Of a stretch of 64,000 nt of DNA, positions 1 to 36,103 are shown piece after piece. Source of the stretch: an uncultured Eubacteriales bacterium (GTDB lineage Bacteria > Actinomycetota > Coriobacteriia > Anaerosomatales > JAAXUF01); assembly GCA_964388455.1 (NCBI GenBank), contig CAYMAN010000002.1:37535-101534 (forward strand). Direction: 5' to 3'. Each line of letters begins with the position of its first letter. The first letter of the stretch is position 1. The notes beneath the pieces are model-generated. The model saw nothing but the letters and a program-made list of their open reading frames with translations. It had not been told where the DNA came from and ran no database searches. Made by a program: the position numbers and the translations under genes.

Positions 1-2
1 TG

Positions 3-1634
3 TGTGCGGCCAAAGCGCGCCCGTTCGAGTTCGCGTTCCTGCTCGATGCGCTGAAGAACGAGCAGGCCCAAGGCATCACCATCGACACCGCACGCTGCTT
101 CTTCAAGACCGACCGTCGCCACTACATCATCCACGACGCTCCCGGGCACATCGAGTTCCTCAAGAACATGATCACGGGCGCCTCGCGTGCGCAGGCCGCG
201 CTGCTCGTGATCGACGCGCAGGAGGGCGTGAAGGAGAACTCCAAGCGCCACGGCTATATCCTGTCGATGCTGGGTATCCGACAGGTCGCCGTCCTGGTGA
301 ACAAAATGGACCTGCTCGACTGGGACCAGGACGCATTCAACGCGGTGACCGCCGAGTACGCTGACTTCCTGGGCCGAGTGGGCGTGAAGCCGACGCGCTT
401 CATCCCGATCAGCGCGCGCGACGGCGCCAACATCGTGGAGCGCGGTGCCGAGGCGAGCTGGTACGACGGTCCGACCGTGCTCGAGCAGGTGGAGTCGTTC
501 CGCAGCCTCGACGACGACTTTGACCGGCCGTTCCGCATGCCGCTCCAAGACGTATACAAGTTCACCGCCGAGGGCGACGACCGCCGCATCTTCGCGGGCA
601 CGGTCGAGAGCGGCCGCGTTAGACCGGGCGACGGCATCGTGTTCCTGCCGTCGGGTAAGCGCTCGACCGTCAGCCGCATCGAGGTGCTGCAGAGTGATGC
701 GCCGGTCGAGGCGCTTGCCGGTCAGGCGACCGGCTTCACGCTCGACACGCAGGTCTACGCCAAACCGGGCGAGCTCATCGTGCGTGAGGGCGAGCCGCTC
801 CCCGAGGTCTCGACGCGGTTGCGCGCCAACGTGTTCTGGATGGGTGTAGCGCCGCTCGTGAAGGGCCGCCGCTACACATTGCGCATCGGGACCGCGAAGG
901 TGCCGGTCGAGCTCGAGGAGGTGCTGAGCGTTCTCGACGCCTCCGAGCTCAGGTCGGTCACCGGCGCCTCACAAGTCGCGCGCCACGACGTCGCCGAGAT
1001 CGTGCTGCGCACCGTGCGCCCGGTCGCGTTCGACGCCGCGGACTTCCTCGAGGGTACCGCGCGGTTTGTGATCGCGAGCGGCTACGACATCGCAGGCTGC
1101 GGCATCGCGCTCGAGGCCCTGGCCACCGACGACGGCTCGACTGACGCCGGACGTGCGTTCGCACCGGGTCTGGTCTCGGCTGCGGAGCGCGCGAAGCGCA
1201 ACGGCCACAGTGGCAAGGCCGTGGTGTTCGTGAGCGATTCCGCTGTGGCAGCTCACGATGCTGCCGCGCAGCTCGAACGCCGGCTGTTCGACCTCAACGC
1301 ACACTCGTACTTCCTGGGCGCCACCGACCTCGCCGAGCAGACCGATGTGCTCGCGCGCGACGAACGGCTCGTGCAGCTGGGGCATATAGCACGGGCGATG
1401 GCTGACGCGGGTGTCGTCCTCGTGACCGCACTGGGCGACGTCGACCGCTTCGATCTCGACCGCTTGCGCGGGTTGGCTGCGCCACATGAGCTGTTCGTGG
1501 TGGGGCTGGGCGGAACGGCCACGGAGGTCGGCGCTGATCTCGCGCTCGAAGCCGACATGTCGCCCGGGCCGGCGATCGATGCCGCCGTCCGCGCGCTGAC
1601 CGCTGTCGGCGTGCTCGCCGATTACGAGATCTAG
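3..1634 (+). CDS. cysN: Sulfate adenylyltransferase large subunit (CysN GTPase), 5' end cut by the window edge, with a C-terminal APS-kinase-like domain that has a degenerate P-loop
   Basis: Frame 3 is open from base 3. It reads ..LDALKNEQAQGITIDTARCFFKTDRRHYIIHDAPGHIEFLKNMITGAS..VLVNKMDL, the EF-Tu-like G motifs typical of CysN. The C-terminal ~140 aa resemble CysC but carry FVSDSAVAAH where GLSGSGKST is expected. Confidence 0.85.
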   Translation, partial: CAAKARPFEFAFLLDALKNEQAQGITIDTARCFFKTDRRHYIIHDAPGHIEFLKNMITGASRAQAALLVIDAQEGVKENSKRHGYILSMLGIRQVAVLVNKMDLLDWDQDAFNAVTAEYADFLGRVGVKPTRFIPISARDGANIVERGAEASWYDGPTVLEQVESFRSLDDDFDRPFRMPLQDVYKFTAEGDDRRIFAGTVESGRVRPGDGIVFLPSGKRSTVSRIEVLQSDAPVEALAGQATGFTLDTQVYAKPGELIVREGEPLPEVSTRLRANVFWMGVAPLVKGRRYTLRIGTAKVPVELEEVLSVLDASELRSVTGASQVARHDVAEIVLRTVRPVAFDAADFLEGTARFVIASGYDIAGCGIALEALATDDGSTDAGRAFAPGLVSAAERAKRNGHSGKAVVFVSDSAVAAHDAAAQLERRLFDLNAHSYFLGATDLAEQTDVLARDERLVQLGHIARAMADAGVVLVTALGDVDRFDLDRLRGLAAPHELFVVGLGGTATEVGADLALEADMSPGPAIDAAVRALTAVGVLADYEI

Positions 1635-1643
1635 GAGACCGCC

Positions 1644-3122
1644 ATGACCGACCAGCCACTGAGCACCGGAATGTATCCGCTCCTGCTCGATCTCGCAGGC
1701 CGAGACGTGCTCGTGGTCGGCGGCGGCACCGTGGCGGAGCGGCGTGTCATGGGACTTCTCGAGGCCGGCGCTCGGGTGACGCTGGTTGCACCGGAGGCCA
1801 CCAGCATGCTGGCCGAGCTGGCGCGCGACGGCCGGATAGTCTGGGCTGCGCGCGGGTTCGATACGGGCGATGTCGTGGGAAGCACCCTCGCCTTCACCGC
1901 GACCGGCATCCTCGAGGTCGACTCAGCCGTCGCAGAGGAAGCCCGCGCTCGCGGCATCTTCGTGAACAGCGCCGACGACAACGAACGCTGCGACTTCCAC
2001 GTCCCCGCCGTCGCTCGCCGAGGAGACATCGTGATCGCGGTTGGCACCGGCGGTGTCGCACCCGCGCTCGCGGCTCGTCTACGCGATCGCTTCGCGGCTG
2101 GCCTCGGTCCCGAGTGGGAGCGGTTCGCGGTGGTCCTCGGCGAGATGCGAGACCTTGCGCGCACCCGTATCGCAGACCGCAGCGAGCGAGCGCGCGTGCT
2201 TACGGCCGCAGCTCGCGACGATGCGCTGCTCGCGCGGCTGGCGCGAGGCGAGGACGTGACGGCCGCAGGTGCGCTGGCGGAGGTGTGCGCAGCGCGGGCG
2301 CCCGACCGCACCGCGAAGGCCGCACCCGCACCCGCGCCCGCCGCCGCCCCTGTGGCCGACGGGCCGCCCCCCACGACCGCGCACGTAAGCCTAGTTGGTG
2401 CCGGCCCCGGCGCCCCGGACCTGCTCACGCTGCGTGCGTACGAGCGCATCCGCGCCGCCGACGTCATCGTCTACGACGACCTCGTCGATCGCACCGTGCT
2501 CACGCAGGCGCGTTCCGACGCCGAGCTCGTGTACTCGGGCAAGCGTGGCTGGTGCAGTGGCCCGGAACGCCCTGGTCCCGAGTTGCTCGTGCAGCGAGCG
2601 CTTGAGGCCGGCGGCAAACGTGTCGTGCGGCTCAAGGGTGGCGACCCCAACGTGTTCGGTCGCAGCACCGAAGAGATCGCGGTGCTCGAGGCCGCCGGCG
2701 TGCCCTACGAGATCGTTCCCGGCATCACAGCCGCGCTCGCCGCGGCCGCCGCCGCGCACATCCCACTCACAAAGCGCGGCGTCGCGGGCAGCCTGACGCT
2801 TGCGACCGGCGTGGCGGTCGGCGCTGGCAGCACGGCCGACGACCCCATGGGCGCCGACGATCCCACACCGGCCGATATCGCATCGTTGGTACGCTCCGGC
2901 AGCACGGTCGCCGTCTACATGGGGCTGCGCATGCTCCCGGAGATCGCCGATGCGCTGCTCACCGCGGGCGTCTCGGCCGACCTGCCGGTGGCGGTGATCA
3001 GCTCGGCGTCGTTGCCGGGGGAGACCGTGGTCCGCGGCGCACTTGCGAATATCTCATCGCGCGTGAGCGATGCGGGCGTGCCGTCGCCGGCGATCGCGAT
3101 TCTCGGCGAGGTAGCAAAGTGA
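1644..3122 (+). CDS. cysG: Siroheme synthase: N-terminal precorrin-2 dehydrogenase/ferrochelatase fused to a C-terminal uroporphyrinogen-III C-methyltransferase
   Basis: AGGAG lies 7 nt upstream of the ATG. N-terminal Rossmann motif VLVVGGGTVAERRV. C-terminal SUMT motifs VSLVGAGPGAPDLLT, VIVYDDL, RLKGGDP. An Ala/Pro-rich linker separates the halves. Confidence 0.85.
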   Translation: MTDQPLSTGMYPLLLDLAGRDVLVVGGGTVAERRVMGLLEAGARVTLVAPEATSMLAELARDGRIVWAARGFDTGDVVGSTLAFTATGILEVDSAVAEEARARGIFVNSADDNERCDFHVPAVARRGDIVIAVGTGGVAPALAARLRDRFAAGLGPEWERFAVVLGEMRDLARTRIADRSERARVLTAAARDDALLARLARGEDVTAAGALAEVCAARAPDRTAKAAPAPAPAAAPVADGPPPTTAHVSLVGAGPGAPDLLTLRAYERIRAADVIVYDDLVDRTVLTQARSDAELVYSGKRGWCSGPERPGPELLVQRALEAGGKRVVRLKGGDPNVFGRSTEEIAVLEAAGVPYEIVPGITAALAAAAAAHIPLTKRGVAGSLTLATGVAVGAGSTADDPMGADDPTPADIASLVRSGSTVAVYMGLRMLPEIADALLTAGVSADLPVAVISSASLPGETVVRGALANISSRVSDAGVPSPAIAILGEVAK

Positions 3123-3147
3123 ATCTGACACAACTTGGAGGAACTCA

Positions 3148-3999
3148 ATGGACGAACGCACACTGAAGGCAGGCGGATTTCTGAAGCTTCGCCAGAAGGA
3201 CCGGTGGGCGTTGCGCGTGCGTGTCGCCAACGGGGACATCTCGGCGGAGTCACTTGCCGCGCTGGCGGTACTCGCACAGCGCTTCGGCGACGGCGAGATC
3301 CACTTCACCGTGCGCCAGTCGATCGAGATCCGCGGCGTGCGAGTCGAGGAGTTCACCGAGGTGCAGGCCGCCCTCGCCGAGGCAGGCTTCGGCCCTGGTG
3401 TGGGAGGCTCGAGTGCGCGCAACACGGTGACGTGCCCCGGCTCGCGCACCTGCAGGCGAGGACTGAACGACACCGTCGCGCTTTCCGAACTTCTCACGGA
3501 GCGCCTCTACGCGCGCGATGGGCTGCCGCACAAGTTCAAGTCGGCCGTCTCGGGATGTCCCGCGTCGTGCGCCAAGCCGCAGGGAAGCGACATCGGGTTC
3601 CTCGGCGCGGTCGAACCGGTCTTCGATGAGGCCGACGGTGACTGCATCGCGTGTGGCATCTGCGCGCGAGTGTGCCCCGCCGGCGCCATCACTCTGGACA
3701 GCGATGGCCGGCCGGTCATCGACCTCTCCAGATGCGACCGCGACGGCGAGTGCGTCTCGGCGTGCCCCACTCGTGCGATCCGCGCGAACAAGCATGGCTG
3801 GCGGGTCTTTCTCGGCGGCAACTTTGGGCGGCATCCGGCGCTGGCTTACGAGGTTGGCGGAATCGTCGACACAGCCGAGGCGGTCGATATCGCGGAACGT
3901 GCGCTCGAGGCTTACATGCGCCATGGCCAGGGTCGCGAGCGGCTGCGCGTGGTAGTGGATCGTGTGGGCCTCGACGAGTTCCTGGAAGAGGTCCTGTGA
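3148..3999 (+). CDS. Small siroheme-[4Fe-4S] sulfite/nitrite-reductase-like protein with an embedded 2x[4Fe-4S] ferredoxin domain
   Basis: GGAGGA RBS. Siroheme-cluster cysteines CPGSRTC (C-x5-C) and GCPASC (C-x3-C). Ferredoxin motifs CIACGICARVCP and CDRDGECVSACP. Adjacent to cysG. Confidence 0.7.
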   Translation: MDERTLKAGGFLKLRQKDRWALRVRVANGDISAESLAALAVLAQRFGDGEIHFTVRQSIEIRGVRVEEFTEVQAALAEAGFGPGVGGSSARNTVTCPGSRTCRRGLNDTVALSELLTERLYARDGLPHKFKSAVSGCPASCAKPQGSDIGFLGAVEPVFDEADGDCIACGICARVCPAGAITLDSDGRPVIDLSRCDRDGECVSACPTRAIRANKHGWRVFLGGNFGRHPALAYEVGGIVDTAEAVDIAERALEAYMRHGQGRERLRVVVDRVGLDEFLEEVL

Positions 4000-4137
4000 C
4001 AGCCGAGACAATCGGCATCATCAGGCGATGCGCTCATGGAGTGCCAAACCACAGAGAATAGGTGCGGTCTCATGTCTTGAGCCAGTGGAGCTCGTGATGC
4101 TACTTTGTAGCGCACAATCAGTCGCTGGAAGGTTCGT

Positions 4138-4461
4138 ATGACACCCACGGTTCGCCGAAGAGCAAGGGTCGCTGTGTGTACCGCAGCTGCGGCGCTGATG
4201 CTCTTTTGCGTGCTCATGGTGTCAGACCAGTTCGTCCCGATGGGTGACGATTCACGGTCCGATTCCTTCCGCACCATGAACACCGCGTGCGCAGTCGCCG
4301 ACACGGTCACCATTGCGCAGTCGAAGCGGATCGCGCCTCATCCGGTGGTGGCATTGCACGCGGACACAATCGCTGGAGCGCGCTGGGTTTGGGTGACGAC
4401 CCCGTTGGTTGCCGCAGCAGTCGACCCTCCCCATTTGGAATTCCCTCCACTTCGGACCTGA
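4138..4461 (+). CDS. Hypothetical small protein with an N-terminal signal/anchor helix
   Basis: GGAAGG lies 6 nt upstream of the ATG. N-terminus is RRRARVAVCTAAAALMLFCVLMV. No recognisable domain, and local GC is lower than in the neighbours. Confidence 0.3.
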   Translation: MTPTVRRRARVAVCTAAAALMLFCVLMVSDQFVPMGDDSRSDSFRTMNTACAVADTVTIAQSKRIAPHPVVALHADTIAGARWVWVTTPLVAAAVDPPHLEFPPLRT

Positions 4462-4614
4462 GTTAGCCAGAGCCCTCACCTATGCACGGCGCCCAGGGGC
4501 GCCTCCGGCAAGTATTCGTGATGCCGGCACCGTGCAGGTCGCACACCGGGCTCAACTCATCGCGCCGTCACTCCCGTGAACGCGCGCCTTCCCGTCTGAA
4601 GTGAAGAGAAAGGA

Positions 4615-5997
4615 ATGGCCATGCGCCGATTCCTCTGTACGATGATCACCGCCGTACTGGTGCTTGGACTGACTGTGACGCCCGCCATGGGCGGCCTTAT
4701 GGTCGAGTCGACTGCGGTCTTGGCGATGCACGGGGACATGCCAATGCCCCCGACCATGCCACCCAGCATGCCCCCGACCATGCCACCCAGCATGCCCCCG
4801 ACCATGCCGACTGACCCGAGCATGCCCCCGACCATGCCGACCGACCCCAGCATGCCCCCGACCATGCCCATGGACCCCGACATGCCCATGGACCCCGACA
4901 TGCCGATGCCACCCAGCATGCCTCCGACCATGCCCCCCAGCATGCCCCCGACCATGCCCCCGACCATGCCCATGGACCCCGATATGCCCATGCCGGGCAG
5001 CGCGAAGACGGAGGTCGACCGAACCTCTGGCTCCAATCGAATCACCACCGCAGTCAACGTCAGCAAGTCGCAGTTCGATGACGGAGCTGCTGACAGCGCA
5101 GTTATCGTGAACGGCTACTCGCTTCCGGACGCACTGACGGCCCCGGCTCTCGCAGGCGCGGTTGACGGGCCCGTGCTCTTCACTCGTGCGGACCACCTAC
5201 CCGCTGCAGTGATGGACGAACTCGACCGGCTTGGTGTTGAAAGCGTCTATCTCGTTGGCGGTACCAGCGTCATCTCGACCACCGTAAGCCGTGAGCTCGC
5301 GAACGCCGGATTCAGCGTGCGACGCATTCGCGGTTCCAACCGATACGCGACTGCAGCGGCCGTGGCTGCCAAGGTCGCCGCGATTCGTGGCGGACTCACT
5401 CGGGCCTTCGTGGTCAACGCGGACATGACATCGTTCGCGCTGTCAACCGCCCCGTACGCGTTCAGCCAAGGTATGCCGCTCCTCTTCACGTCCGCCAAGG
5501 GGTTGCCGGTAGAGACAACTCGGGCGATTCGCACCCTCGGCATAGACAACGTCACAGTCATCGGTGGAACGTCCTCGCTCTCCGCTGCCACCTACTCGGC
5601 GTTGGCTCGTAAGACAACCGGTCGCGCGGACAATCGCATCTCCGGTTCAAGCCGCTTCGAGAATGCTCGCTTGCTTGCTGAGTACGCGATCGCCAGAGAC
5701 TGGGCGGATCCCATGCATGTTGGATTGGTGAATGGGGTGTCGGGCTTCGCAGAAGGACTGGCAGGCGCTTCAGTGACCGGTGCTCGCAGCGGAGTTGTGC
5801 TGCTCGTGACGGGTACCGAGTTGACGCGGCCATCGCAGCTCTTTCTCTCGAAGCATGGCACTGCCGGCGACGTTGAAGGCGTCCATCTGTACGGCGGCAC
5901 AGGCCTGATCTCCGACTCCGTGAAGAATCATGTCGTGAAGCTGGGACTAAGCCACGAAACGGACTCGGTCCCCACTGATCCGACCCCAAAGCACTAG
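4615..5997 (+). CDS. Secreted cell-wall-binding protein: signal peptide, Met/Pro-rich tandem repeat, three CWB2 (cell wall binding repeat 2) modules
   Basis: Signal-like N-terminus MAMRRFLCTMITAVLVLGLTVTPAMG. Three CWB2-like modules (GSNRITTA..VIVNGYSLPDALTAPALAG..PVLFT; GSNRYATAAAVA..; GSSRFENARLLA..). Confidence 0.8.
   Translation: MAMRRFLCTMITAVLVLGLTVTPAMGGLMVESTAVLAMHGDMPMPPTMPPSMPPTMPPSMPPTMPTDPSMPPTMPTDPSMPPTMPMDPDMPMDPDMPMPPSMPPTMPPSMPPTMPPTMPMDPDMPMPGSAKTEVDRTSGSNRITTAVNVSKSQFDDGAADSAVIVNGYSLPDALTAPALAGAVDGPVLFTRADHLPAAVMDELDRLGVESVYLVGGTSVISTTVSRELANAGFSVRRIRGSNRYATAAAVAAKVAAIRGGLTRAFVVNADMTSFALSTAPYAFSQGMPLLFTSAKGLPVETTRAIRTLGIDNVTVIGGTSSLSAATYSALARKTTGRADNRISGSSRFENARLLAEYAIARDWADPMHVGLVNGVSGFAEGLAGASVTGARSGVVLLVTGTELTRPSQLFLSKHGTAGDVEGVHLYGGTGLISDSVKNHVVKLGLSHETDSVPTDPTPKH
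4738..4995 (+). repeat. In-frame tandem repeat (12-nt / 4-aa core MPP[S/T], with variants MPTDPS and MPMDPD) inside the wall-protein gene
   Basis: Direct reading: atgccacccagcatgcccccgacc iterated. About two dozen Met codons fall within 86 codons. Confidence 0.9.
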
Positions 5998-6026
5998 ATC
6001 TTCGACTCAAACGAAACGCTTCGTCC

Positions 6027-6058
6027 GGGTGTGGGCGGCATCGTGGCCGCCCACACCC
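6027..6058 (+). terminator. Perfect 13-bp-stem hairpin between the wall-protein gene and the cytochrome gene (terminator, attenuator or mRNA-stabilising element)
   Basis: gggtgtgggcggc-atcgtg-gccgcccacaccc. No U-tract follows, so the terminator function is uncertain. Confidence 0.45.
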
Positions 6059-6079
6059 CCGACAGTACGGATTACACAC

Positions 6080-7648
6080 ATGGGAAGCCCCCGCACACAG
6101 CTTCTGATCGGCACCATCACGGTGGTCATTCTGGCGACGATCACCGTGGCGCTCGGTGTCGGTCTGACGCGCTTTGCCCCCCAGCTAGGAGTGCCTGGCA
6201 GTTCCGCCGCAGCCGCAGAGAGTGGACATGTCACGCTCGAGCCCACCCAGCAGTGCAGCCACTGTCATCTCGCGAAGCACAAGGCTCCGCTCGTGGGACC
6301 GTGCGATGATTGCCACACAACGACCACGTGGCTCTCTGAGCGCAGCCATGAGACCACGGCCATGGATGCGGGACGACACACGCCATTGCGCTGTGTGCAG
6401 TGCCATGCGAACCCAAACGTGCTGCCGAGTCCGAAGTGCCAGTCATGCCACCGCACGGTCGCTCACTTGCCCGAGCAGAACTGTGACAGGTGCCACTCGG
6501 CGAAGTCATGGAAGGACACCCGGTTCAGCACGCCCGAGAAACATCAGGACGTCGTCGAAGGACACAAGACGCTCAAGTGCCCTGATTGTCATCAACTCAA
6601 CACCGGCAGCACGATCGGGCCACCTCTCGCGAAGCTGCCCGCCAAGACTCCGCCGCCGCGCTGCAAGTCATGCCACAAGAAGCACACCAAGGATTTCGCG
6701 CTTGTCGGACAGCACCAGAAGCTGCGATGTGCCCAGTGTCATAACGTGAACGCCAAGAGGGACAACCTCAACCGGATCTCGATCAAGGCCACGCAATGTG
6801 TTCAGTGCCATAAGCAGCGGCATGCCGGATATCCGGACTGTGCCAAGTGCCACACCACGAAATTCGCGAAGACTCAATATGCCCATAATGGCGTCTGGCC
6901 ACTGGTCGGCGCTCACAAGAAGGCCGCCTGCGATACATGTCACCCGAAGCAGCAGTGGAACAAGGTGCCGGGAACAGCTTGCGCCGCGTGCCACAAGCCG
7001 CGTCACTCAGCGCTGACGAACTGCGCACGTTGTCATTCTCCGCTTGGATTCAGGATGACAACGTTCAGTCACTCGACCGTCTTCGCGCTCAAGGGTACCC
7101 ACTCAAACCTGAAGTGCGCCCGATGCCATCCTGGCGGTGACATCGGACGCGTCAAGGGAACCGCCTGCGCTCAATGTCACTCGGTCAAACACGGCGGCCT
7201 GAAGGCGTGCGCCAAGTGTCATGGTTCGGGATCGTTCAGCCCGACCACGTTCAAACACAATCGGGTGTGGGCCCGCACCGGCGCGCACGCCAGACTGAAG
7301 TGCTCGGCGTGTCACCCCAAGAAGCAGTATGCGAAGACCAAGGGGCGCGACTGCGTCCAGTGTCACTACCGCAAGCACGCAGGACAGACTCGCTGTGCCA
7401 CGTGCCACACCACGTCCGGTTGGACGCCCATCAAGACGGTCGTCCACTCCGACAAGTACCCGCTGCTCGGCCAGCATCGCTTCGTCGAATGCCGAGCATG
7501 TCATAAGCAGCTCAAGTTCAACGGGACGCCAACTCGTTGCAACGATTGCCACGCTGACCTGTCCCATGGGCACCCCAACTGCGAGGGGTGTCATACCCCG
7601 AGGGCGTGGAAGTTCCTGCTTCCACACGACATGAAAGAGTGCTTGTGA
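6080..7648 (+). CDS. Membrane-anchored multiheme cytochrome c with 22 CxxCH motifs, built from repeated c7/c3-like triheme modules
   Basis: I counted 22 CxxCH motifs in the translation. One N-terminal TM helix (LLIGTITVVILATITVALGVGL). Start set to the ATG at 6080 because the track start at 6029 lies inside the upstream hairpin. Confidence 0.9.
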   Translation: MGSPRTQLLIGTITVVILATITVALGVGLTRFAPQLGVPGSSAAAAESGHVTLEPTQQCSHCHLAKHKAPLVGPCDDCHTTTTWLSERSHETTAMDAGRHTPLRCVQCHANPNVLPSPKCQSCHRTVAHLPEQNCDRCHSAKSWKDTRFSTPEKHQDVVEGHKTLKCPDCHQLNTGSTIGPPLAKLPAKTPPPRCKSCHKKHTKDFALVGQHQKLRCAQCHNVNAKRDNLNRISIKATQCVQCHKQRHAGYPDCAKCHTTKFAKTQYAHNGVWPLVGAHKKAACDTCHPKQQWNKVPGTACAACHKPRHSALTNCARCHSPLGFRMTTFSHSTVFALKGTHSNLKCARCHPGGDIGRVKGTACAQCHSVKHGGLKACAKCHGSGSFSPTTFKHNRVWARTGAHARLKCSACHPKKQYAKTKGRDCVQCHYRKHAGQTRCATCHTTSGWTPIKTVVHSDKYPLLGQHRFVECRACHKQLKFNGTPTRCNDCHADLSHGHPNCEGCHTPRAWKFLLPHDMKECL

Positions 7649-8901
7649 CTGACAACATTCCGCCCGCCAAACGGGCTGCGTTCGATCCCGCCCGCCTGCT
7701 GGCTTCGCCGCGATTTGCGCAGTGGCTGCTGGGCGTTTTGGCCTGGGTCGCCCTGGTGCTGCTGATACCCCTCGTGATCAACGGTCCAGGTGCGGGTGAG
7801 GCCGCCCAGCGGTTCGCTTCGGTGTCACTGCCGTTCCTGGCGTTGTACACGCTGCTCGCGGGATCGCTCCTCGTCTGCATGGTTGGGCGGTTCAACGGCG
7901 TCCGCAACCGTGTGTCGGTTCGTCCTCGTCCTCGCCTCAGTGTGGGGTCGAACTCAGTGATCGCCCCGTCGGACTTCGATCCCGAGACTGCGGCGAGCGT
8001 CTTGCGCCGAGCGGGCTACCGTCACGTGGAGACGAATGGGAGCTGGGCATGGGGGGTGAAGTATCCTTGGTCCCCGCTGGGGACGCTGATTCTTCACTCG
8101 TCGGTGCTCGTTGCGCTTCTTGGCGCGGCACTGGCCGTCACACCGGGAATCGACCGAATGACACACGTATCCGCACTCCAGGGCGTCACCGTGAAGGCTA
8201 CCGACGATGTGCCCGAGCTGCGGTTGAAATCGCTGGATGCCGTCCCCGGCGAGCAGGGGACGCTCCTGCGACTCTCCGGTGTGGTGCAGACCGCCACCGG
8301 CCGAGAAGTTCGAGTGCGACCCGATCTCCCCGCGCTGGTTGACCCGATCACGGCTGTGGTCATCGAGGACTACGACTTCGCGTCGACCTTTTCGGCTGTT
8401 CCTACTGGTGCGCTGCTCCCTGTGACCCGGCAGGTGAAGGCTCTACGGCTGAGGAAGTCTGGGGCCGCCGATAGGCTGATTCTGGACGCCGGCGCGCTCG
8501 GCACATATCGGATCACCGTGCGGTTGGACAAGGCGAATCCCGAGAACGTCATCGCGACGACCGAGCGGCGCGCAGCGCGCGGTGCGTGGCGGTTGGTCGA
8601 CAGTGAGCGAGCGTTCTCGAAAGGCGAGGTGGCGACGGTGGGCAAGATCCGCCTCCGCTTCGAGGGGTTGCGCTCGTACGCGATCCTGAGGGTTCATCGA
8701 GCTCCATCGGGCTCCATCATCGCCTTGGCGCTGCTGTCTGCGGTGCTCGGCGCGGGGTTGAGGCTGCTCCTCCCGAGAAATGAGGCGACTATCGCCAACG
8801 TCGCGGATTCGACCGTCGTTACCGTTGCGGTCGACGCGTACAAAGGTTCGCGTAGTGCCTCGGCGAAACTCGCCTTGGCGTTTGAGGAGGCCACATGGTA
8901 A
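7645..8901 (+). CDS. ResB/CcsB(Ccs1)-like System II cytochrome c biogenesis protein
   Basis: The GTG start overlaps the cytochrome stop (GTGA). N-terminal TM region FAQWLLGVLAWVALVLLIPLVI, a large extracytoplasmic domain, a conserved-looking His in LILHSSVLVALLGAAL, and a C-terminal TM. Confidence 0.7.
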   Translation: MTDNIPPAKRAAFDPARLLASPRFAQWLLGVLAWVALVLLIPLVINGPGAGEAAQRFASVSLPFLALYTLLAGSLLVCMVGRFNGVRNRVSVRPRPRLSVGSNSVIAPSDFDPETAASVLRRAGYRHVETNGSWAWGVKYPWSPLGTLILHSSVLVALLGAALAVTPGIDRMTHVSALQGVTVKATDDVPELRLKSLDAVPGEQGTLLRLSGVVQTATGREVRVRPDLPALVDPITAVVIEDYDFASTFSAVPTGALLPVTRQVKALRLRKSGAADRLILDAGALGTYRITVRLDKANPENVIATTERRAARGAWRLVDSERAFSKGEVATVGKIRLRFEGLRSYAILRVHRAPSGSIIALALLSAVLGAGLRLLLPRNEATIANVADSTVVTVAVDAYKGSRSASAKLALAFEEATW

Positions 8902-9698
8902 TCAGTCTCGCAGCAGCAGGCGCACTACATATTGTCGGAGCGCTTCTCGTGCTCGTGGGAATCGGCACCTCTTGGGTACGAGGTCCCGCCGGGAGGTGGA
9001 TGACACTCATCGCGTTCGCCGCGGGAGCCGCCGCACTCATCGCCGAGGGGGTGTTCCGCGCCGTCGTCACCGATCGAGCACCGTTGGTGGGCACGTACGA
9101 GAACACGCTCGTCGTCGCGATTCTGCTCCTAGTGGCCTGCTCGATCATTCTGGTGTTCACCGATCCGCCCGTGCGCTTGGCGCTCACTCGGCTTACGGCG
9201 CCATGGGCCATCCTCACACTGGCTTTCGGTTCGCGATTCACCTCCAGCCCGCTGCTCGTTGGCGTGGAAGGGCGTGGGTTGCTGGCCTACACTCATGCGT
9301 TCGTAGGCTGGCTCGATTTCACGGTTCTGATCGTGGGAACGATGGCCGCGTTGGCGATGCTGCTCAATCGCAGAGGTGAAGTGAGCGCGTGGCAGGCGGT
9401 GACGACTCGCATGCTCGGTGCCGGATTCGTGCTGCTCACCGCAACGATCGCAAGCGGCGCCGTTCTGAGCTTCGGTGTCTTCGGCTCGTGGTATCAGTGG
9501 CAGATCGTGGAGACGCTCTCGGCGGTGTTGTGGCTTGCCTACGGCTTCGCGTTGCATGCGTTTTTGCTGTTCGGATGGAAGGAGAGGCGACTTGCGGCTC
9601 TGACTGTCGCCGTGTTGCCGTTGGCTTTGGCGACCTTCTGGGTCTGGGCGCTCTATCCGGGCACATACCACTACTTCGAGCGAATCCTTGGCTCCTAG
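8895..9698 (+). CDS. CcsA/ResC-like cytochrome c assembly protein (heme handling)
   Basis: The ATG overlaps the ResB-like stop (ATGGTAA). Polytopic, with a Trp-rich WWD-like segment FGSWYQWQIVETLSAVLWLAYGFALH. Confidence 0.75.
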   Translation: MVISLAAAGALHIVGALLVLVGIGTSWVRGPAGRWMTLIAFAAGAAALIAEGVFRAVVTDRAPLVGTYENTLVVAILLLVACSIILVFTDPPVRLALTRLTAPWAILTLAFGSRFTSSPLLVGVEGRGLLAYTHAFVGWLDFTVLIVGTMAALAMLLNRRGEVSAWQAVTTRMLGAGFVLLTATIASGAVLSFGVFGSWYQWQIVETLSAVLWLAYGFALHAFLLFGWKERRLAALTVAVLPLALATFWVWALYPGTYHYFERILGS

Positions 9699-9895
9699 GT
9701 TGTGATGCTCGCCGGCATCCGTGGCGCCGAGACTCCCTGCAGACTGCTCACCGTCCCGACGGCTCGGCGAATCCCGCCGTTTCGTGCCGTTCGCCCATTC
9801 AACACTCGCGCCAACGGCCGTCGTCGCGGTATAACAGGAGCACGCCGCGCAACGCTCATCTTTCAGTCCGCGCGGTCCATATAAGGAGTCACATC

Positions 9896-10498
9896 ATGAA
9901 CGACGCTTTCGAGCTGCCGTTTCCGCAGTATCGATGCCCCGAGTGCGGCAAGGATCTCCCGCTGGGCGAGGCCCGCATGACAGTCACCTGCGCGTCCCAC
10001 ACGCAGAGCGAGCCGGTCGAGTTCACCGTGCGCAAGGCCACCGACGCCGACCGCAACGACGTCGCGCTCCTGTGCGAGCGCGCGCTGGGCGAGACCGACG
10101 TCGACGTCTTTGGCAAAACGTTCGACGTGCTCTCCGGCGTGAACCTCATCGCCGAGGCGGACGGCGCACTCGTCGGCCTGCTGTCGCTCGCCATCGACCG
10201 CGGCGAACTCGCCGTCGTGCTGCTGAGCGTCTACCCGGACTTCCAGGGCAAGCGCGTCGGCTCCTCGCTCCTCACCGCCGCCGACCAGTTCGCCGCCAAG
10301 CGCGGCCTGCCGTTCATGCGCGTCGCCGTCACCAACGACGACATCCCGCAGCTCTACTTCTACCAGCGCCACGGTTTCTCGATCTACGAGGTCGCCGTGG
10401 GCGAGGTCGCCGACCGCTTTGGCTCGGCCACGCCCGGCTTCTCGGGGATTCCCGTCCGCGACGAGCTCCGCCTCCGCCGAGCGGTGTGCGCAAGCTAG
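9896..10498 (+). CDS. GNAT-family N-acetyltransferase with an N-terminal Cys-containing (zinc-ribbon-like) segment
   Basis: AAGGAG lies 6 nt upstream of the ATG. GNAT core VYPDFQGKRVGSSLLTAADQFAAKRG..FYQRHGF. N-terminus contains CPECG. Confidence 0.8.
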   Translation: MNDAFELPFPQYRCPECGKDLPLGEARMTVTCASHTQSEPVEFTVRKATDADRNDVALLCERALGETDVDVFGKTFDVLSGVNLIAEADGALVGLLSLAIDRGELAVVLLSVYPDFQGKRVGSSLLTAADQFAAKRGLPFMRVAVTNDDIPQLYFYQRHGFSIYEVAVGEVADRFGSATPGFSGIPVRDELRLRRAVCAS

Positions 10499-11565: not shown

Positions 11566-12354
11566 GTGGCGGCCCTCTCCTTCAATCGAGTCTCGCTGAC
11601 GTACGAGGGTTCGGACCGCCAGGTCCGGGCCCTCGACGACCTCACGCTCGATATCGCCAATGGTGAGTCGGTCGCCATCATCGGCCCCAGTGGCTGCGGC
11701 AAGTCGACTCTGCTGCTCCTCGCGGCGGGGCTGCTGACCCCGACGGCCGCAGCGGGCGCGGGCGCTGGCGCAGCCGCTGGCGAGATCACAATCGCAGGCG
11801 ACACTATCGCCGGTCCGCGCCGAGAGACCGCGCTCATCCTCCAAGACTTCGGCCTGCTCCCCTGGAAGACCGTCGCCGAGAACGCCGGCCTCGGGCTCCA
11901 GATACGCGGCATGGGCCGAAGCGTCGTGCGTGAGCGTGCGTCCGACGCGCTCGAGCGCGTGGGCCTCGCCGAGTTCGCCTCGGCCTACCCCAGCGAGCTC
12001 TCGGGTGGGATGCGTCAGCGTCTTGCGCTCGCTCGCGCGGTGGCGCTCGACGCAGACCTGCTGCTCATGGACGAGCCGCTCTCGGCGCTCGATGCGCTCA
12101 AGCGTGAGGAGCTGCAGGCGGTGCTGCTCGAGCTGTGGCAGCGCCGCGGACACACTTCGGTGCTGGTCACGCACTCGATCGAGGAGGCCGTGTTTCTCGG
12201 CCAGCGGGTCGTGGTCATGACACCGCGCCCGGGACGCGTCGGGGCGATCGTCGACAACCCCGGAGCCGGCACCGCCGGCTATCGAGCCAGCGAGGAGTTC
12301 TTCGCCCGCTGCACCCAACTCCGCGCCCTTCTGGCCGAAGGGGGTGTGGCGTGA
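11566..12354 (+). CDS. ABC transporter ATP-binding protein (SsuB/TauB-like)
   Basis: GTG start. Walker A GPSGCGKS, signature LSGGMRQR, Walker B LLLMDEP. Contains an Ala/Gly-rich insertion TPTAAAGAGAGAAAGE. Confidence 0.9.
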   Translation: MAALSFNRVSLTYEGSDRQVRALDDLTLDIANGESVAIIGPSGCGKSTLLLLAAGLLTPTAAAGAGAGAAAGEITIAGDTIAGPRRETALILQDFGLLPWKTVAENAGLGLQIRGMGRSVVRERASDALERVGLAEFASAYPSELSGGMRQRLALARAVALDADLLLMDEPLSALDALKREELQAVLLELWQRRGHTSVLVTHSIEEAVFLGQRVVVMTPRPGRVGAIVDNPGAGTAGYRASEEFFARCTQLRALLAEGGVA

Positions 12355-13136
12355 GCGCCCCAGCCGCCGCCCTCCGCCATAAGCCGCGCTCCGGAGTCCG
12401 CAAGCTCGTCGGCTATGTGGGCGCTGTCGCGGTGCTGCTGCTCGGCTGGGCCGCCGTCGCCGTCGCGGTCGGCTCGCCTGCGCTGCCGGGCCCGGTCGTC
12501 GCGATCGAGGCGTTTGTCGACCAGTGGCCGGCGATCTGGCCCCAGATGCTGGTAAGCCTGTGGCGCGTCGTGGTCGCGATGGCGCTCGGGACGACGCTTG
12601 CGGTTCCGCTCGGCCTGATGCTGGGCCGCTCACCGCGAACCGACGCGGTGTTCGCGCCGCTGATCTACATCACCTACCCGATCCCCAAGGTGGTGTTCTT
12701 GCCGGTGCTCATGGTGCTCCTTGGCCTTGGCAACGCTCCAAAGATCGTGCTCATCGCGATCATCGTCTTCTTCCAGATACTCGTCACCGCGCGTGACGCG
12801 TCCAAGGCCGTCCCCGAGCCGAGCGTGCTCTCGGTCCGTTCGTTGGGTGCCTCGCGCTGGGACGTCTATCGCCACGTGGTGGTGCCAGCCGCGCTGCCCG
12901 ACATCTTCACGGCGCTTCGAATCGGCACCGGCACCGCCATCGCCGTGCTCTTCCTCGCCGAGTCGATCGCCGGCTCGAGCGGCATCGGATACTACATAGT
13001 CGATGCGTGGGGACGCATCGACTATCCCGCGATGTTCGCCGGGATCATCGGCATGGGGCTTCTGGGCGTGGTGCTGTACGAGGCGCTGGATGGTGTCGAG
13101 GTCTGGGCGACTCGTTGGCGCCGAGCAGGAAACTGA
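12351..13136 (+). CDS. ABC transporter permease (SsuC/TauC-like)
   Basis: The GTG overlaps the upstream stop (GTGA). Polytopic, with the EAA-like loop region SLGASRWDVYRHVVVPAALP. Confidence 0.85.
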   Translation: MSAPAAALRHKPRSGVRKLVGYVGAVAVLLLGWAAVAVAVGSPALPGPVVAIEAFVDQWPAIWPQMLVSLWRVVVAMALGTTLAVPLGLMLGRSPRTDAVFAPLIYITYPIPKVVFLPVLMVLLGLGNAPKIVLIAIIVFFQILVTARDASKAVPEPSVLSVRSLGASRWDVYRHVVVPAALPDIFTALRIGTGTAIAVLFLAESIAGSSGIGYYIVDAWGRIDYPAMFAGIIGMGLLGVVLYEALDGVEVWATRWRRAGN

Positions 13137-13157
13137 GCCGATTCTCGGGAACAACTC

Positions 13158-13173
13158 TTACGAGCGCGCGTAA
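13158..13173. promoter_or_regulatory. Near-perfect 16-bp palindrome in the AT-richer leader of the osmoprotectant operon (possible operator); TACAAT -10-like hexamer at 13201-13206
   Basis: TTACGAGCGCGCGTAA has one mismatch to perfect dyad symmetry. Position only; no known regulator motif was matched. Confidence 0.25.
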
Positions 13174-13265
13174 TATCACGCAAACAGTTATAGTAAGTCT
13201 TACAATTGCTGATATCACTCGCGATCAGGTACGTTTTCGAAGTTCATCGGCTTGGGAGGATTCAC

Positions 13266-14237
13266 ATGCGTAGGAGCAGATTTGCACTCGTGGCACTCTT
13301 CATCGTGGCGCTGATGGTGCTTACGGGCTGTGGTTCGAAGGCGGCAGAAGCGCCGGACAAGACCACCACAACCGTCACTCCCAAGGAAGGTCCCGAGGTC
13401 AAGTTCGGGTCCTACATCGACTCCGAGGGGTCGATTCTGGGCGCGATGGTCGTGCAGATGCTTAAAGCCAACGGCATCAAAGTGGTCGACAAGACCAAGT
13501 TCGGTACCCCCGATGTCGTTCGCAAGGCGTACCTTCAGGGCGACCTGAGTGGCGCGATCGACTACACCGGCAGCGGCGCGTTCTACGTCGGACCGGAATC
13601 CGATCCGGTCTGGAGCGACCCGATCAAGGGCTACGAAACGATCCAGTCCAAGGATCTCGCGGCGAACAAGGTCGTCTGGACCACGCCTGCTCCGGCAAAC
13701 AACACCGAGTCGATCGCGGTGACCAAGGAGTTCTCGGCGAAGAACAACATCACGACCATGGAGGAGTTCGCGGAGTACGTGAGCAAGGGCGGGAACGTCA
13801 AGCTCATCGGCGCTCAGGTGTGGATGGACAGCCCGCTCGGCCTGAAGGGTTATGAGAAGGCCTACGGATTCACGCTGAAGAAGAACCAGCTCATCGGGCT
13901 CTCCAACGGTGTGACCTCTGAGTTCATCAAGGCGCTCGCCAACGGCACCAACGGCGCCAACTTCGCCGAGGTGTACGCGACCGACGGTGGACTGGCGGAT
14001 CTGGGCCTCGTCGTCCTGACCGACAGCAAGAGCGTGCCGCCGGTCTACGCGCCGACCCCTGTGTTCCGCGAGGAGATCATCGCGGCGTACCCGGAGATCG
14101 AGTCGATCCTCGCGCCGGTGTTCGCATCGCTGACCATCGAGAAGCTGCAGGAGCTCAACAAGTCCGTCGCCATCGATGGCAAGGATCCCAAGGTCGTGGC
14201 CACCGAGTATCTGACCGCAGGCGGTTTCCTCAAATAG
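13266..14237 (+). CDS. Glycine betaine/choline-type (OpuC/OsmX-like) ABC substrate-binding lipoprotein
   Basis: GGGAGGA RBS. Lipobox VLTGC. OpuAC-family-like sequence (GSYIDSEGSILGAMVVQMLKANG.., YATDGGLADLGLVVLTD). Confidence 0.8.
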   Translation: MRRSRFALVALFIVALMVLTGCGSKAAEAPDKTTTTVTPKEGPEVKFGSYIDSEGSILGAMVVQMLKANGIKVVDKTKFGTPDVVRKAYLQGDLSGAIDYTGSGAFYVGPESDPVWSDPIKGYETIQSKDLAANKVVWTTPAPANNTESIAVTKEFSAKNNITTMEEFAEYVSKGGNVKLIGAQVWMDSPLGLKGYEKAYGFTLKKNQLIGLSNGVTSEFIKALANGTNGANFAEVYATDGGLADLGLVVLTDSKSVPPVYAPTPVFREEIIAAYPEIESILAPVFASLTIEKLQELNKSVAIDGKDPKVVATEYLTAGGFLK

Positions 14238-14253
14238 CACGCGAGGCGCCGTT

Positions 14254-15465
14254 GTGCGCTTCAGCTGGAAAGTGAGCGGCGTGGACGAAGGCGTCCGAGA
14301 TACGAAGGCACAAGCGAGGGTCGTCGCGGTTGCGGGCAGTCTGCTCGGGATCGCGACGATCTTCGCGCCTTCGTTTGTCGCCTTCCGGCCCAACCGGATC
14401 ATCGACGGCACGCCCCAATCTGCGGTCAACGCGCTGGGCGTATGGGGCTGGGTGCTGCTGGCGATGTGGGTCGCAGCCGCGGCGCTCTCGGTGACGCCAA
14501 TCCCGTACCGCTGGCGTGGACTGACCGTCGGCTTGCTTGGAGGAGGCACTGCGGTCGTCGCGACGTGGAGAGTCGGTGCAGAGGCCGCAGCCTATCTGGC
14601 CGAGAAGGGCGACATCGCACGGCTGTCTCTGGGTGGCGCGTTCTGGATCCTGCTGCTCGCCGCCTACCTCGTGGTCTTCGCGGCGAGTGCGTGGACGCCG
14701 CCTGGTTGGTCGCGGATGCTGGTGTCGTATCTGCCGGCCGTGGGCGTGGTGCTGCTCCTCGTTGGTGGGGCGCTTGCGTCGCTGTCGATCATGCGCGAGT
14801 ACGCGAACAACTCCCTCGAATTCTGGGCCCAGCTCAGGCTGCAGCTGCTCTACGTGCTGGGTGCGACGTCGCTGGGCTTCGCCATCGGCATGCCATTGGG
14901 ACTCATCGCGGCACGGCGACCGTCCGCCGAGCCCGCCATCTTCACAGCGCTCAACATCCTCGAGGTGCTGCCGGTGCTGGCGTTCATCGGCCTGCTGAAC
15001 CCGATTCTCACCGGTCTGTCCGAGAGTGTTCCGCTGCTTGCGACGCTCGGCGTGCGAGGCGTGGGGTGGGCGCCCGTGCTCATCGTGCTCACGGCCTACG
15101 CGATGTATCCCATCGCGCGAAACTCCTACACCGCGATGACCACGCTCGACCCGGCTGTGCTTGATGCGGCGAAGGGCGTGGGCATGAAGCGCGTGCGCCA
15201 GCTCTTCGAGGTCGAGCTCCCCATCGCGGCCCCGGTGATCCTCGCAGGCCTGCGCATCGCGCTGGTCCAGACGACCGCTGGCGCGATCATCGCCGGGCTT
15301 GTGGGCGGCGGTGGGCTGGGGACGTTCGTCTTCCTCGGCGCGGCTCAGACGGCGACCGATCTGATCCTGCTCGGCACCATTCCGATCGTGGTGATGGCGC
15401 TGTTCTTCGACCGCAGCACGCTCACGGTGCAGCGATTCCTGGGACGATGGGGCGTGACTGCATGA
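14254..15465 (+). CDS. Osmoprotectant ABC permease with an extra N-terminal polytopic extension
   Basis: GTG start. The C-terminal half is a standard binding-protein-dependent permease (LGFAIGMPLGLIAARRP.., AAKGVGMKRVRQLFEVELP). About 190 aa of additional TM helices precede it. Confidence 0.8.
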   Translation: MRFSWKVSGVDEGVRDTKAQARVVAVAGSLLGIATIFAPSFVAFRPNRIIDGTPQSAVNALGVWGWVLLAMWVAAAALSVTPIPYRWRGLTVGLLGGGTAVVATWRVGAEAAAYLAEKGDIARLSLGGAFWILLLAAYLVVFAASAWTPPGWSRMLVSYLPAVGVVLLLVGGALASLSIMREYANNSLEFWAQLRLQLLYVLGATSLGFAIGMPLGLIAARRPSAEPAIFTALNILEVLPVLAFIGLLNPILTGLSESVPLLATLGVRGVGWAPVLIVLTAYAMYPIARNSYTAMTTLDPAVLDAAKGVGMKRVRQLFEVELPIAAPVILAGLRIALVQTTAGAIIAGLVGGGGLGTFVFLGAAQTATDLILLGTIPIVVMALFFDRSTLTVQRFLGRWGVTA

Positions 15466-25317: not shown

Positions 25318-25346
25318 GCGCGAGGGCCTTCCGGGTCAGGCGTACG

Positions 25347-25700
25347 CTAGCTGAAGTTGAAACCCGCTTGTGCGAAGAGCACCACATAGACGACGGTCCA
25401 GATGAGCACCGAGACGATCGTGAGCTTGATGATCAGCGGCATCGGATTGTGAGCCTCGGAGATCCCTTCAGGGAACTCGTGGATCATCGGAAGTCCGCCG
25501 TTGGCCAGCTCAGTCTTCTTGAGATTCTTGTGACTGTGCGGCAAGACGGGCTCTGTCGAGATCTCGGCGACCGCAACGGGTTCGGCGACTTCCGTCCGTC
25601 CCACCCATCCGCCGCGAATCACCGCCCAGATGGCGACGAGGATTCCTGCTCCCACGGCGAGGCCCCACACCACGGCCGATATCTGCTGGTCGACGGGCAT
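25347..25700 (-). CDS. Two-TM protein resembling the N-terminal membrane-anchor domain of CcoP (FixP_N-like), without heme motifs
   Basis: HEFPEGISEAHNPMPLIIKLTIVSVLIWTVVYVVLF compares with the CcoP N-terminal consensus H.FDGI.EYDNPLP.WW...F (recalled from memory). No CxxCH. Confidence 0.6.
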   Translation of the reverse strand: MPVDQQISAVVWGLAVGAGILVAIWAVIRGGWVGRTEVAEPVAVAEISTEPVLPHSHKNLKKTELANGGLPMIHEFPEGISEAHNPMPLIIKLTIVSVLIWTVVYVVLFAQAGFNFS

Positions 25701-27762: not shown

Positions 27763-27777
27763 GGTCGCGTCTCCTCT

Positions 27778-35813: not shown

Positions 35814-36103
35814 AATCCTCACCCTTCGGTAGCCTGGCTGTCTCAGCTTGTGAGACCCTTTGGCTTTGCGTCCCCGCCTCACGACGGGTTTGCCTTTGTC
35901 ACGGGAGGGCTCGGATCGCCCAACCCAAATGTTCATCTGTCACAGTTATCGGTCACAGCGTGCAGCACTTGAGTGATTTCCATCACATTTCTCGCACGGG
36001 CCGACGAACGGCTGACGAACGGTCGGTGTGTGGAATCGACGGTCACATGTGGAACAATCAGCCCTATACGAATTCGCCGAACGGACAGGACGCCGTACAC
36101 CGC

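Follow-up and report, generated by a model that had tools for sequence, protein, structure and literature searches.

Could a 22-heme cytochrome, encoded beside a wall-binding protein that carries no heme of its own, serve electron transfer outside the membrane of a monoderm bacterium? This question is raised by a gene cluster in a stretch of 64,000 nucleotides of contig CAYMAN010000002.1 (hereafter the window). Five co-directional open reading frames on the plus strand, between positions 4138 and 9698, encode in this order a small transmembrane (TM) protein, a methionine-rich protein with CWB2 wall-binding modules, the multiheme cytochrome, a ResB-like protein, and a CcsA-like protein, with a hairpin between the CWB2 and cytochrome genes (Table 1). 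An initial annotation, made from the letters of the DNA, had singled out the last four genes (4615-9698) as a candidate electron conduit across a monoderm envelope, and all four are present and co-directional on the plus strand. The reading that we favor, with a little less than even confidence, is that the locus would form a conserved operon whose products make up an extracytoplasmic electron-transfer module, in a host that is a monoderm and probably an environmental member of the Coriobacteriia.

Conservation and probable expression of the gene set

Contigs with a gene for a related cytochrome were compared by BLAST and with hidden Markov models (HMMs) built from these genes. This gave eight independent loci, namely the window, L021, L018, L026, L027, L003, L002, and L020, four of which are short contigs. 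A CWB2 orthologue, the cytochrome, the ResB-like gene, and the CcsA-like gene follow one another in this order in all eight. The six relatives other than L021 have cytochromes that are 40-60% identical to that of the window. The CWB2 parts are 38-79% identical to the window's, with the L021 module at 79%, and their identity ranking parallels that of the cytochromes. A neighbor-joining tree separates the CWB2 orthologues, as a single clade, from 18 other CWB2 proteins. The synteny that the initial annotation had asked for between wall protein and cytochrome was thus found: a CWB2 orthologue lies directly upstream of the cytochrome gene in every locus, down to 40% cytochrome identity.

These results reveal a gene set that is conserved as a unit. 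It is also rare. None of the module neighbors accompany the more distant cytochromes (≤36% identity; L005-L017, L024, L025, and L029), and a metagenome scan returned distant cytochromes only (23-30% identity), again without module neighbors. Two scans of GTDB species representatives, with cytochrome and CcsA alignments, yielded no relatives, although the patterns were narrow and this is weak evidence of rarity. Multiheme clusters with biogenesis genes are already known in Gram-positive bacteria (PMC9686372, PMC7911101). We found no description of a CWB2-cytochrome pairing, nor of a Met-rich protein in such a system, in the literature searched.

The junctions within the set are tight. In all eight loci, the cytochrome gene meets the ResB-like gene, and the ResB-like gene the CcsA-like gene, with an overlap or with a gap of no more than 6 nt. 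In the window, the cytochrome stop and ResB-like start share GTGA (7645-7648) and the ResB-like stop and CcsA-like start share ATGGTAA (8895-8901), exactly as had been read initially. The start first assigned to the cytochrome, a GTG at 6029, proved to be too early; the gene begins with the ATG at 6080, from which the 522-residue product is identical to database protein P0001.

The hairpin upstream of the cytochrome gene also held up, with arms at 6027-6039 and 6046-6058 that form a perfect 13-bp stem around a 6-nt loop. For the surrounding 96 nt between the genes (5990-6085), folding gives -38.7 kcal/mol and a z score of -3.35. The structure is kept in L021, L018, and L027, with two compensatory pairs and 98% of cells paired, and L002 has a different 14-bp hairpin at the same place. 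In L003, L020, and L026 the spacers measure 3, 18, and 23 nt and have no hairpin. As for its role, the stem ends 21 nt before the cytochrome ATG, and there is no promoter-like site between the CWB2 and cytochrome genes in the window. The U-tract of an intrinsic terminator is missing, the sequence after the stem being CCGACAGTACGG, and a terminator scan made no T-run terminator call at this position. The initial annotation had allowed for a full terminator with independent expression of the two genes; this is ruled out by the 3-23-nt spacers of three loci, together with the 21-nt gap and the lack of a promoter-like site. Because there is no U-tract, no promoter-like site, and only 21 nt to the next start, the CWB2 and cytochrome genes can be taken as co-transcribed, and the hairpin most likely sets the CWB2:cytochrome ratio, either by partial termination or by protection of the upstream mRNA 3' end. 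A dispersed repeat or an operator was considered for the hairpin and rejected, its sequence being unique in the window. Alignments of the intergenic regions upstream revealed a shared Shine-Dalgarno sequence and no recognizable regulator site.

A gene for the small single-TM protein precedes the CWB2 gene in at least four loci (window, L021, L018, and L002). Its product has one TM helix near the N terminus (residues 8-36) and a conserved C-terminal motif, PPHLExxPLR[T/I]; it is 32% identical to the L018 orthologue and has no Pfam or NCBIfam match. An HMM made from the window, L018, and L002 copies also detects the gene in L021, which is the only independent detection. Further upstream, the sulfate-assimilation genes (CysN, siroheme synthase, and a small sulfite reductase) were tried as part of the module and set aside, because they are collinear in the window and its close relative L021 only. 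The last of these (3148-3999, plus strand), next to the other two, encodes a sulfite/nitrite reductase of the siroheme type, 283 residues long, into which a ferredoxin domain is inserted; the protein is similar to small sulfite reductases of the AsrC/Dsr-like kind and falls below every NCBIfam cut-off.

The heme-attachment pair and the cytochrome

Both maturation proteins are divergent. The ResB-like protein reaches 48.7 bits against the Pfam ResB model (cut-off 24.6) over its N-terminal third only, has four predicted TM helices and a large external loop of ~180 residues, and matches no NCBIfam model. The CcsA-like protein scores 42.5 bits with Cytochrom_C_asm (Pfam cut-off 29.9) and 44.3 bits with the equivalog TIGR03144, well short of its cut-off of 187.6. 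A profile of this protein found no match in the PDB even at E ≤ 1. A search of 1.84 billion 50%-cluster representatives gave 226 relatives of the protein at E ≤ 1e-3, of which 7 reached E ≤ 1e-30. Canonical CcsA proteins carry the WWD motif, WGxxWxWDxxE, with flanking conserved histidines. The Trp-rich motif here is FGSWYQWQIVE, in which W..WQ.VE is invariant among five aligned orthologues, as are His-134, His-221, and His-259. By these sequence comparisons, the two proteins represent a rare and divergent System II pair.

The initial annotation had called this pair private to the cytochrome and co-translated with it. The overlapping junctions that suggest such coupling stood. The word "private" is weakened by the c-type subunits of a cbb3 oxidase and a CcdA-like protein, both encoded in the window. 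A serious, if unlikely, alternative is thus that ResB and CcsA are the general System II for all c-type cytochromes of the cell, those of the cbb3 oxidase included, and are simply co-located with an abundant client and a generic wall protein. The window does encode another c-type client, a CcoO fusion with four c-type domains. All 22 motifs of the cytochrome are canonical CxxCH, with no obvious need for a special lyase, and no second ResB/CcsA pair lies within the 64 kb, although this count covers just that part of the genome and a canonical pair may lie elsewhere. What speaks against a general role is the distance of the CcsA-like protein from the mainstream, as measured by its TIGR03144 score, its empty PDB search, and its 226 relatives, and the fact that it is co-inherited with the cytochrome and the CWB2 gene in every locus. 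A comparable arrangement is found in Wolinella succinogenes, where the heme-lyase genes for NrfI and CcsA1 are co-located and co-inherited with one multiheme client; those enzymes serve the noncanonical motifs CxxCK and CX15CH, in contrast to the uniformly canonical motifs here.

The cbb3-type oxidase cluster (21947-29175, minus strand) is an observation in its own right in a probable member of the Coriobacteriia. Its CcdA-like membrane protein may act in this maturation pathway as the part of System II that reduces thiols, which makes it a possible member of the system.

The cytochrome itself contains 22 CxxCH motifs, 47 histidines, and 4 methionines, and a single hydrophobic helix at residues ~5-34 that is probably an uncleaved signal anchor. 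Motif count and hydrophobicity therefore bear out what had first been read from it. It matches the Pfam families Cytochrome_C7 (E 2.4e-25, 88.6 bits against a cut-off of 24.8), Cytochrom_c3_2, and Cytochrom_CIII. From residue ~240 onward, the protein is built of a regular repeat of ~62 residues, each with three CxxCH motifs and three further histidines; the N-terminal half shows no such regularity. An alignment of the six closest members has all 22 motifs invariant, together with at least 22 nonmotif histidines, and exactly 22 motifs are present in eight of nine clade members. With only four methionines in the protein, every heme can be bis-His, and the sequence gives no sign of a catalytic heme.

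Compared with solved structures, a profile of the family best matched the nine-heme cytochrome c (PDB entry 1duw, 1.3e-10) and Hmc (2e84, 3.5e-9), followed by GSU1996 (3ov0, 1.4e-6) and PpcA-type c7 cytochromes (~1e-3), whereas phmmer with the single sequence found no match in the PDB. The NCBIfam model nanowire_3heme (TIGR04257) scored 30.8 bits, below its cut-off of 40. In having tandem triheme c7-type domains on one polypeptide, the protein resembles the Geobacter polymers GSU1996, GSU0592, and GSU2210, the first of which arranges 12 hemes in a linear wire (PMC10138318). Those polymers are soluble periplasmic proteins of a diderm host with one His-Met heme per domain (PMC10138318). Here, in contrast, there is an N-terminal membrane anchor, enough conserved histidine for all hemes to be bis-His, and no methionine that recurs in the triheme unit.

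Two of the eight loci link the module to an exported hydrogenase. In L018 and L002, genes for the small and large subunits of a [NiFe] hydrogenase and for a HycI protease form part of the co-directional cluster. The small subunit carries the Tat signal RRDFLK; at its C terminus, a long Pro/Thr-rich tail takes the place of a TM anchor, and neither cluster contains a cytochrome b gene. In NCBIfam, the hydrogenase comes closest to periplasmic enzymes of the NiFeSe type, with scores short of the cut-offs. Exported [NiFe(Se)]-type hydrogenases usually have a c-type cytochrome as their acceptor. It is conceivable, although we regard it as rather unlikely, that the cytochrome is a hydrogenase partner or electron capacitor without any wall crossing, in a role like that of cytochrome c3, NhcA, and HmcA in sulfate reducers. 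Electrons would then be stored or passed to a membrane acceptor, such as the cbb3 oxidase encoded 16 kb away in the window, and the CWB2 protein would merely hold or protect the assembly. The best profile matches among solved structures, which are those of Desulfovibrio NhcA and HmcA, fit this explanation, as does the proposal that GSU1996-type polymers act as capacitors (PMC10138318). On the other hand, tblastn found no hydrogenase in the 64-kb window, and one is adjacent in just two of the eight loci, four of these being short contigs. Nor do Hmc- or Tmc-type membrane subunits adjoin the module; the HmcB-F and NhcB-D proteins of Desulfovibrio have no adjacent counterpart here, and the present cytochrome differs further in its membrane anchor, its CWB2 partner, and its monoderm host. 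The invariant CWB2 partner would be left unexplained.

More distant homologues have other partners. In L022, from the Coriobacteriia metagenome-assembled genome (MAG) GCA_049657775.1, a 21-heme homologue with 35% identity follows directly on the gene for a CWB2-anchored cytochrome with nine heme motifs. To judge from its domains, this is a wall-anchored OcwA-like cytochrome in the position held here by the Met-rich protein, and the literature searched contains no description of such a CWB2-anchored protein. Its CWB2 part belongs to a different CWB2 lineage, so this pairing arose independently. Lipoprotein-type homologues with 21 or 22 hemes (L029, 4160-10482; L024, 2-2827) have a gene for a PQQ-like β-propeller directly upstream, and L029 also contains DsrE-like, TusA, and DsrMK-like (Nitrate_red_gam and CCG) genes. 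With upstream partners that differ in this way, the cytochrome family looks like a modular extracytoplasmic wire combined with varied partners.

The wall protein and its methionine-rich arm

The wall protein consists of a predicted signal-like N terminus (~residues 1-26), a Met/Pro repeat (residues 37-128), three CWB2 modules (residues ~133-440), and a short acidic tail with terminal His. Its N terminus is hydrophobic over residues 5-31, followed by PAMG. CW_binding_2 (PF04122) matched three stretches (E 2.7e-40, 137 bits against a Pfam cut-off of 24.9), and a sequence search of the PDB returned Cwp6, Cwp8, and SlpA of Clostridioides difficile (best E 1.4e-24). Composition and these matches agree with the three modules and the Met-rich repeat first described. 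The triple CWB2 module, putative N-terminal signal sequence, and modular layout are those of the C. difficile Cwp/SlpA proteins; unlike them, the protein has an Actinomycetota host and a Met/Pro-rich arm in place of an enzyme or S-layer domain. There is no CxxCH motif, and the sole cysteine lies inside the predicted signal peptide.

The arm contains 25 methionines and 38 prolines within 92 residues, and for the methionines the binomial P is 2e-21 at a 2% background. Its DNA is a tandem array with a 12-nt period, encoding the units MPP[T/S], MPTDPS, and MPMDPD, and has a GC3 of 0.92 in the frame of the wall protein (G+C of the window, ~65%). A Met-rich N-terminal region is present in five of the six orthologues with a complete N terminus (window, L021, L018, L002, and L020), and the contig-truncated orthologues of L026 and L027 both begin within Met-rich repeats. 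The exception, L003, has a Thr/Pro linker instead, so Met-richness is not obligatory, and the protein P0144 has a short Met-containing stretch only. The repeats are unlike each other across loci: L018 has MDPMMFMDAMM, and L002 has ~600 residues of MDMDMDG[V/I]xDxxDP, spaced as in thrombospondin-type-3 calcium-binding repeats. At the other end, the proteins of the window, L021, L018, L026, and L027 terminate in HxH. Since the sequences differ while the Met-richness recurs, selection appears to act on composition (Met, Asp, Pro, and terminal His), not on sequence.

In L021, an assembly N-run at ~9800-10000 falls exactly in the Met-rich repeat, owing to which the gene caller began at an internal Met and called a CWB2 protein of 356 residues; it illustrates the collapse of this repeat in short-read assemblies.

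Such a composition is typical of Cu(I)/Ag(I)-binding segments in known proteins, and it is also compatible with a flexible or polyproline-type stalk. We considered three candidate roles for the partner that do not exclude each other: it may capture soft metals or take part in their redox chemistry, serve as a stalk or docking arm, or protect the exposed thiols of the apocytochrome.

If metal is taken as the primary function, the locus becomes a soft-metal (copper) module, which we hold to be improbable. The Met-rich, His-ended wall protein would act as a Cu(I)/Ag(I) sponge, and the cytochrome would alter the redox state of the bound metal or itself be protected, as a copper-sensitive apocytochrome with 44 thiols. 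Extreme Met content across unrelated repeats, from MPPT to MDMDMDG, would be explained in this way, together with the HxH termini. A second Met-rich secreted family with a conserved Ig-like C-terminal domain neighbors the module in L018, L002, and L020 and includes MMMDMMM runs and the run MMMDMMMDMDMMMMDMMMM; tblastn detected no member in the 64-kb window. Metal-related neighbors occur in L026 (a P1B heavy-metal ATPase, beside a monoheme cytochrome c and a SHOCT protein), in L002 (an ABC ATPase with a YHS domain), and in L018 (an FtrD-like gene). In CueO, CopC/PcoC, CusF, and Ctr1, Cu(I) is bound by Met-rich motifs, and cytochrome c maturation is reported to be a target of copper. The arm shares with those segments its dense, regularly spaced Met with Asp and His; it differs in having no sequence or domain homology to them and far more Pro. 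Cu(I) binding is a candidate function of the arm. Several observations argue against a copper module as such: L003 is without a Met-rich region and P0144 has a short one, the metal genes are inconstant neighbors, and the Cu-ATPase of the window sits with the cbb3 genes, as is usual for CcoI. Moreover, Pfam and NCBIfam detected no known Cu-binding domain, and the upstream alignments contain no Cu-sensing regulator or recognizable operator.

A bolder and very unlikely extension of the electron-transfer reading is that the arm, loaded with copper or another soft metal, forms the heme-free outer segment of the conduit or a copper shield for the 44 thiols. Thioether-bound Cu(I)/Cu(II) sites along a wall-spanning, polyproline-like stalk would exchange electrons with the distal hemes, and this wall-embedded metal-peptide relay or redox station would replace the wall cytochrome of the L022 type. 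In a milder form, the arm would be a copper shield that co-evolved so that 44 thiols can be loaded with heme outside a monoderm membrane.

Mere chance or structural adjacency of an ordinary wall or S-layer-like protein with a low-complexity linker can be dismissed as next to negligible, for although CWB2 proteins are numerous, many with unrelated functional domains, and the Thr/Pro linker of L003 would suit it, both the synteny in eight of eight loci to 40% identity and the monophyly of the CWB2 orthologues argue against it, as do spacers down to 3 nt and the conserved intercistronic hairpin.

A wall-polysaccharide synthesis cluster at 34.7-47 kb (GH26, PMT_2, GT2, GT4, and a flippase) is suggestive of an anionic secondary wall polymer to which CWB2 modules could bind. 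Within it, positions 35824-35903 of the minus strand match the c-di-GMP-I-GGC variant of riboswitches (RF03167; 69 bits, gathering score 59). This riboswitch is just upstream of the GH26-family gene (34710-~35800, minus strand) and divergent from the PMT_2 glycosyltransferase gene (35960-37840, plus strand). The GH26/PMT_2 pair also follows the cytochrome cluster in L020, where no riboswitch was detected. A tie between the riboswitch and the cytochrome cluster was rejected, because the related loci gave no riboswitch match.

Table 1. Coordinates of the module, of the cbb3 oxidase cluster in the window, and of features in related loci
Contig	Feature	Position	Strand	Remarks
Window	Small TM protein	4138-4461	+	107 aa
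Window	CWB2 wall-binding protein	4615-5997	+	460 aa
Window	Met/Pro-rich low-complexity repeat	4723-4998	+	Composition, tandem array
Window	Intercistronic hairpin	6027-6058	+	13-bp GC-rich stem
Window	Multiheme c-type cytochrome	6080-7648	+	522 aa, 22 CxxCH
Window	ResB/CcsB-like System II protein	7645-8901	+	418 aa, Pfam ResB
Window	CcsA/ResC-like heme-handling protein	8895-9698	+	267 aa, Pfam Cytochrom_C_asm
Window	Cu P-type ATPase with HMA domain	21947-24610	-	cbb3 cluster
Window	CcdA-like (DsbD_2) membrane protein	24523-25317	-	Pfam DsbD_2 E 1.9e-37
Window	FixP_N-like small protein	25347-25700	-	cbb3 cluster
Window	CcoO fused to four class-I c-type domains	25873-27762	-	cbb3 cluster
Window	CcoN	27778-29175	-	cbb3 oxidase
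L018	Exported [NiFe(Se)]-like hydrogenase	1334-4429		
L002	Exported [NiFe(Se)]-like hydrogenase	11653-14666		
L018	Second Met-rich family	4513-5868		
L002	Second Met-rich family	3057-4442		
L020	Second Met-rich family	1-1299		
L018	Small protein copy	5921-6247		~107-116 aa across the four loci
L002	Small protein copy	4735-5085		
L021	Small protein copy	~9216-9536		In stop-to-stop frame 9096-9536
L022	CWB2-anchored cytochrome	497-3541		1014 aa, three CWB2 modules, nine CxxCH, MtrC-like and c552-like matches

Proposed electron transfer at the wall of a probable Coriobacteriia host

The best named relatives of the glycerol kinase (GlpK) encoded in the window are from Coriobacteriia MAGs (70-73% identity), and a gene for a PknB-type kinase with four PASTA domains is likewise present in the window. 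A monoderm, environmental member of the Coriobacteriia is the probable host. Cultured environmental Anaerosomatales of this class are Gram-positive and oxidase-positive and use H2 for growth together with sulfur compounds or Fe(III); of the two strains described, one depends obligately on Fe(III) reduction (PMC9686372). The isolates have 17-18 multiheme cytochromes, some of them clustered with cytochrome c biogenesis genes (PMC9686372).

A known multiheme pathway across a wall is that of Thermincola, in which electrons are proposed to flow from the membrane through the peptidoglycan (PMC7911101, PMC6703420). Thermincola potens and T. ferriacetica (ImdcA, PdcA, CwcA, and OcwA) share with the present locus a monoderm envelope and a membrane-associated multiheme cytochrome with wall or surface partners. 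The differences are substantial. Every Thermincola component bears heme, whereas the conserved wall partner here has none and is attached through CWB2 modules; one 22-heme polypeptide stands in place of several 6-10-heme proteins; and the maturation genes are joined into the operon. An OcwA-like nine-heme protein with CWB2 modules is encoded in the distant relative L022 only, not in the window.

How far, then, does the electron conduit of the initial annotation stand? It is plausible and has support in part. Conservation of the module and the probable monoderm host support it; the heme-free wall protein and the alternative roles of the neighbors do not. The wall-side partnership proposed for the CWB2 protein gains from the synteny, from its separate clade, and from L022, where a CWB2-anchored nine-heme cytochrome at the same position fits the logic of a wall-side partner, and it suffers from the lack of any heme motif.

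Several further points weigh against an electron-transfer module at the wall. To judge from its sequence, a heme-free wall protein has no known mechanism to carry electrons itself, and the Thr/Pro linker of L003 stands where other orthologues have the Met-rich region. A single TM helix cannot alone draw electrons from the quinone pool, and no terminal reductase, quinol oxidase, or hydrogenase was seen beside the module in the window. In relatives, the hydrogenase and heavy-metal genes near the module suggest that it has other roles, instead of this one or in addition to it, and the c-type subunits of the cbb3 oxidase also need a heme lyase. The AlphaFold2 (AF2) model of the cytochrome is poor (pLDDT 60), and Foldseek with this model returned no match; for an extended shape of the cytochrome and a reach of ~20 nm, we extrapolate from GSU1996. 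Finally, the host assignment rests on the best named matches of one protein.

On the reading of an extracytoplasmic electron-transfer module, we picture the parts as follows. The genes would be expressed from a single transcript, on which the hairpin attenuates read-through or stabilizes the upstream mRNA, giving more wall protein than cytochrome. The cytochrome would be exported and stay tethered by its N-terminal helix, and its 44 cysteines would receive heme from the translationally coupled, divergent ResB/CcsA pair. When mature, it would be an all-bis-His chain of triheme c7-like units without a catalytic heme, acting as a wire or capacitor that leads from the membrane face into the wall. 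Fixed noncovalently to a wall polymer, the CWB2 protein would present its arm, long and flexible and rich in Met, Pro, and Asp, together with its His-ended tail, where the cytochrome has its distal end. The arm would most likely be a docking or metal-capturing partner, its candidate ligands being soft metals, for example Cu(I), or a substrate that is a mineral or metal. Electrons would probably enter from membrane or extracytoplasmic dehydrogenases, the source in two relatives being the exported [NiFe(Se)]-like hydrogenase of the same cluster, and would leave to acceptors in or beyond the wall. All parts of the module are small and clonable, so that direct tests are feasible.

Very few Gram-positive systems are known in which electrons cross the thick wall, in essence those of Thermincola and a handful of other Firmicutes. 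Environmental Coriobacteriia include recently cultured Fe(III) reducers, and in relatives the module links to exported hydrogenases. The very rare, divergent ResB/CcsA pair may be specialized for loading an unusually long heme array. The cytochrome, with 22 hemes on one polypeptide tethered to the membrane, is a candidate wall-penetrating wire, and its strictly co-inherited, heme-free wall partner may be a new terminal or docking element, unless the system as a whole serves metal capture, protection, or another end in place of classical electron export.

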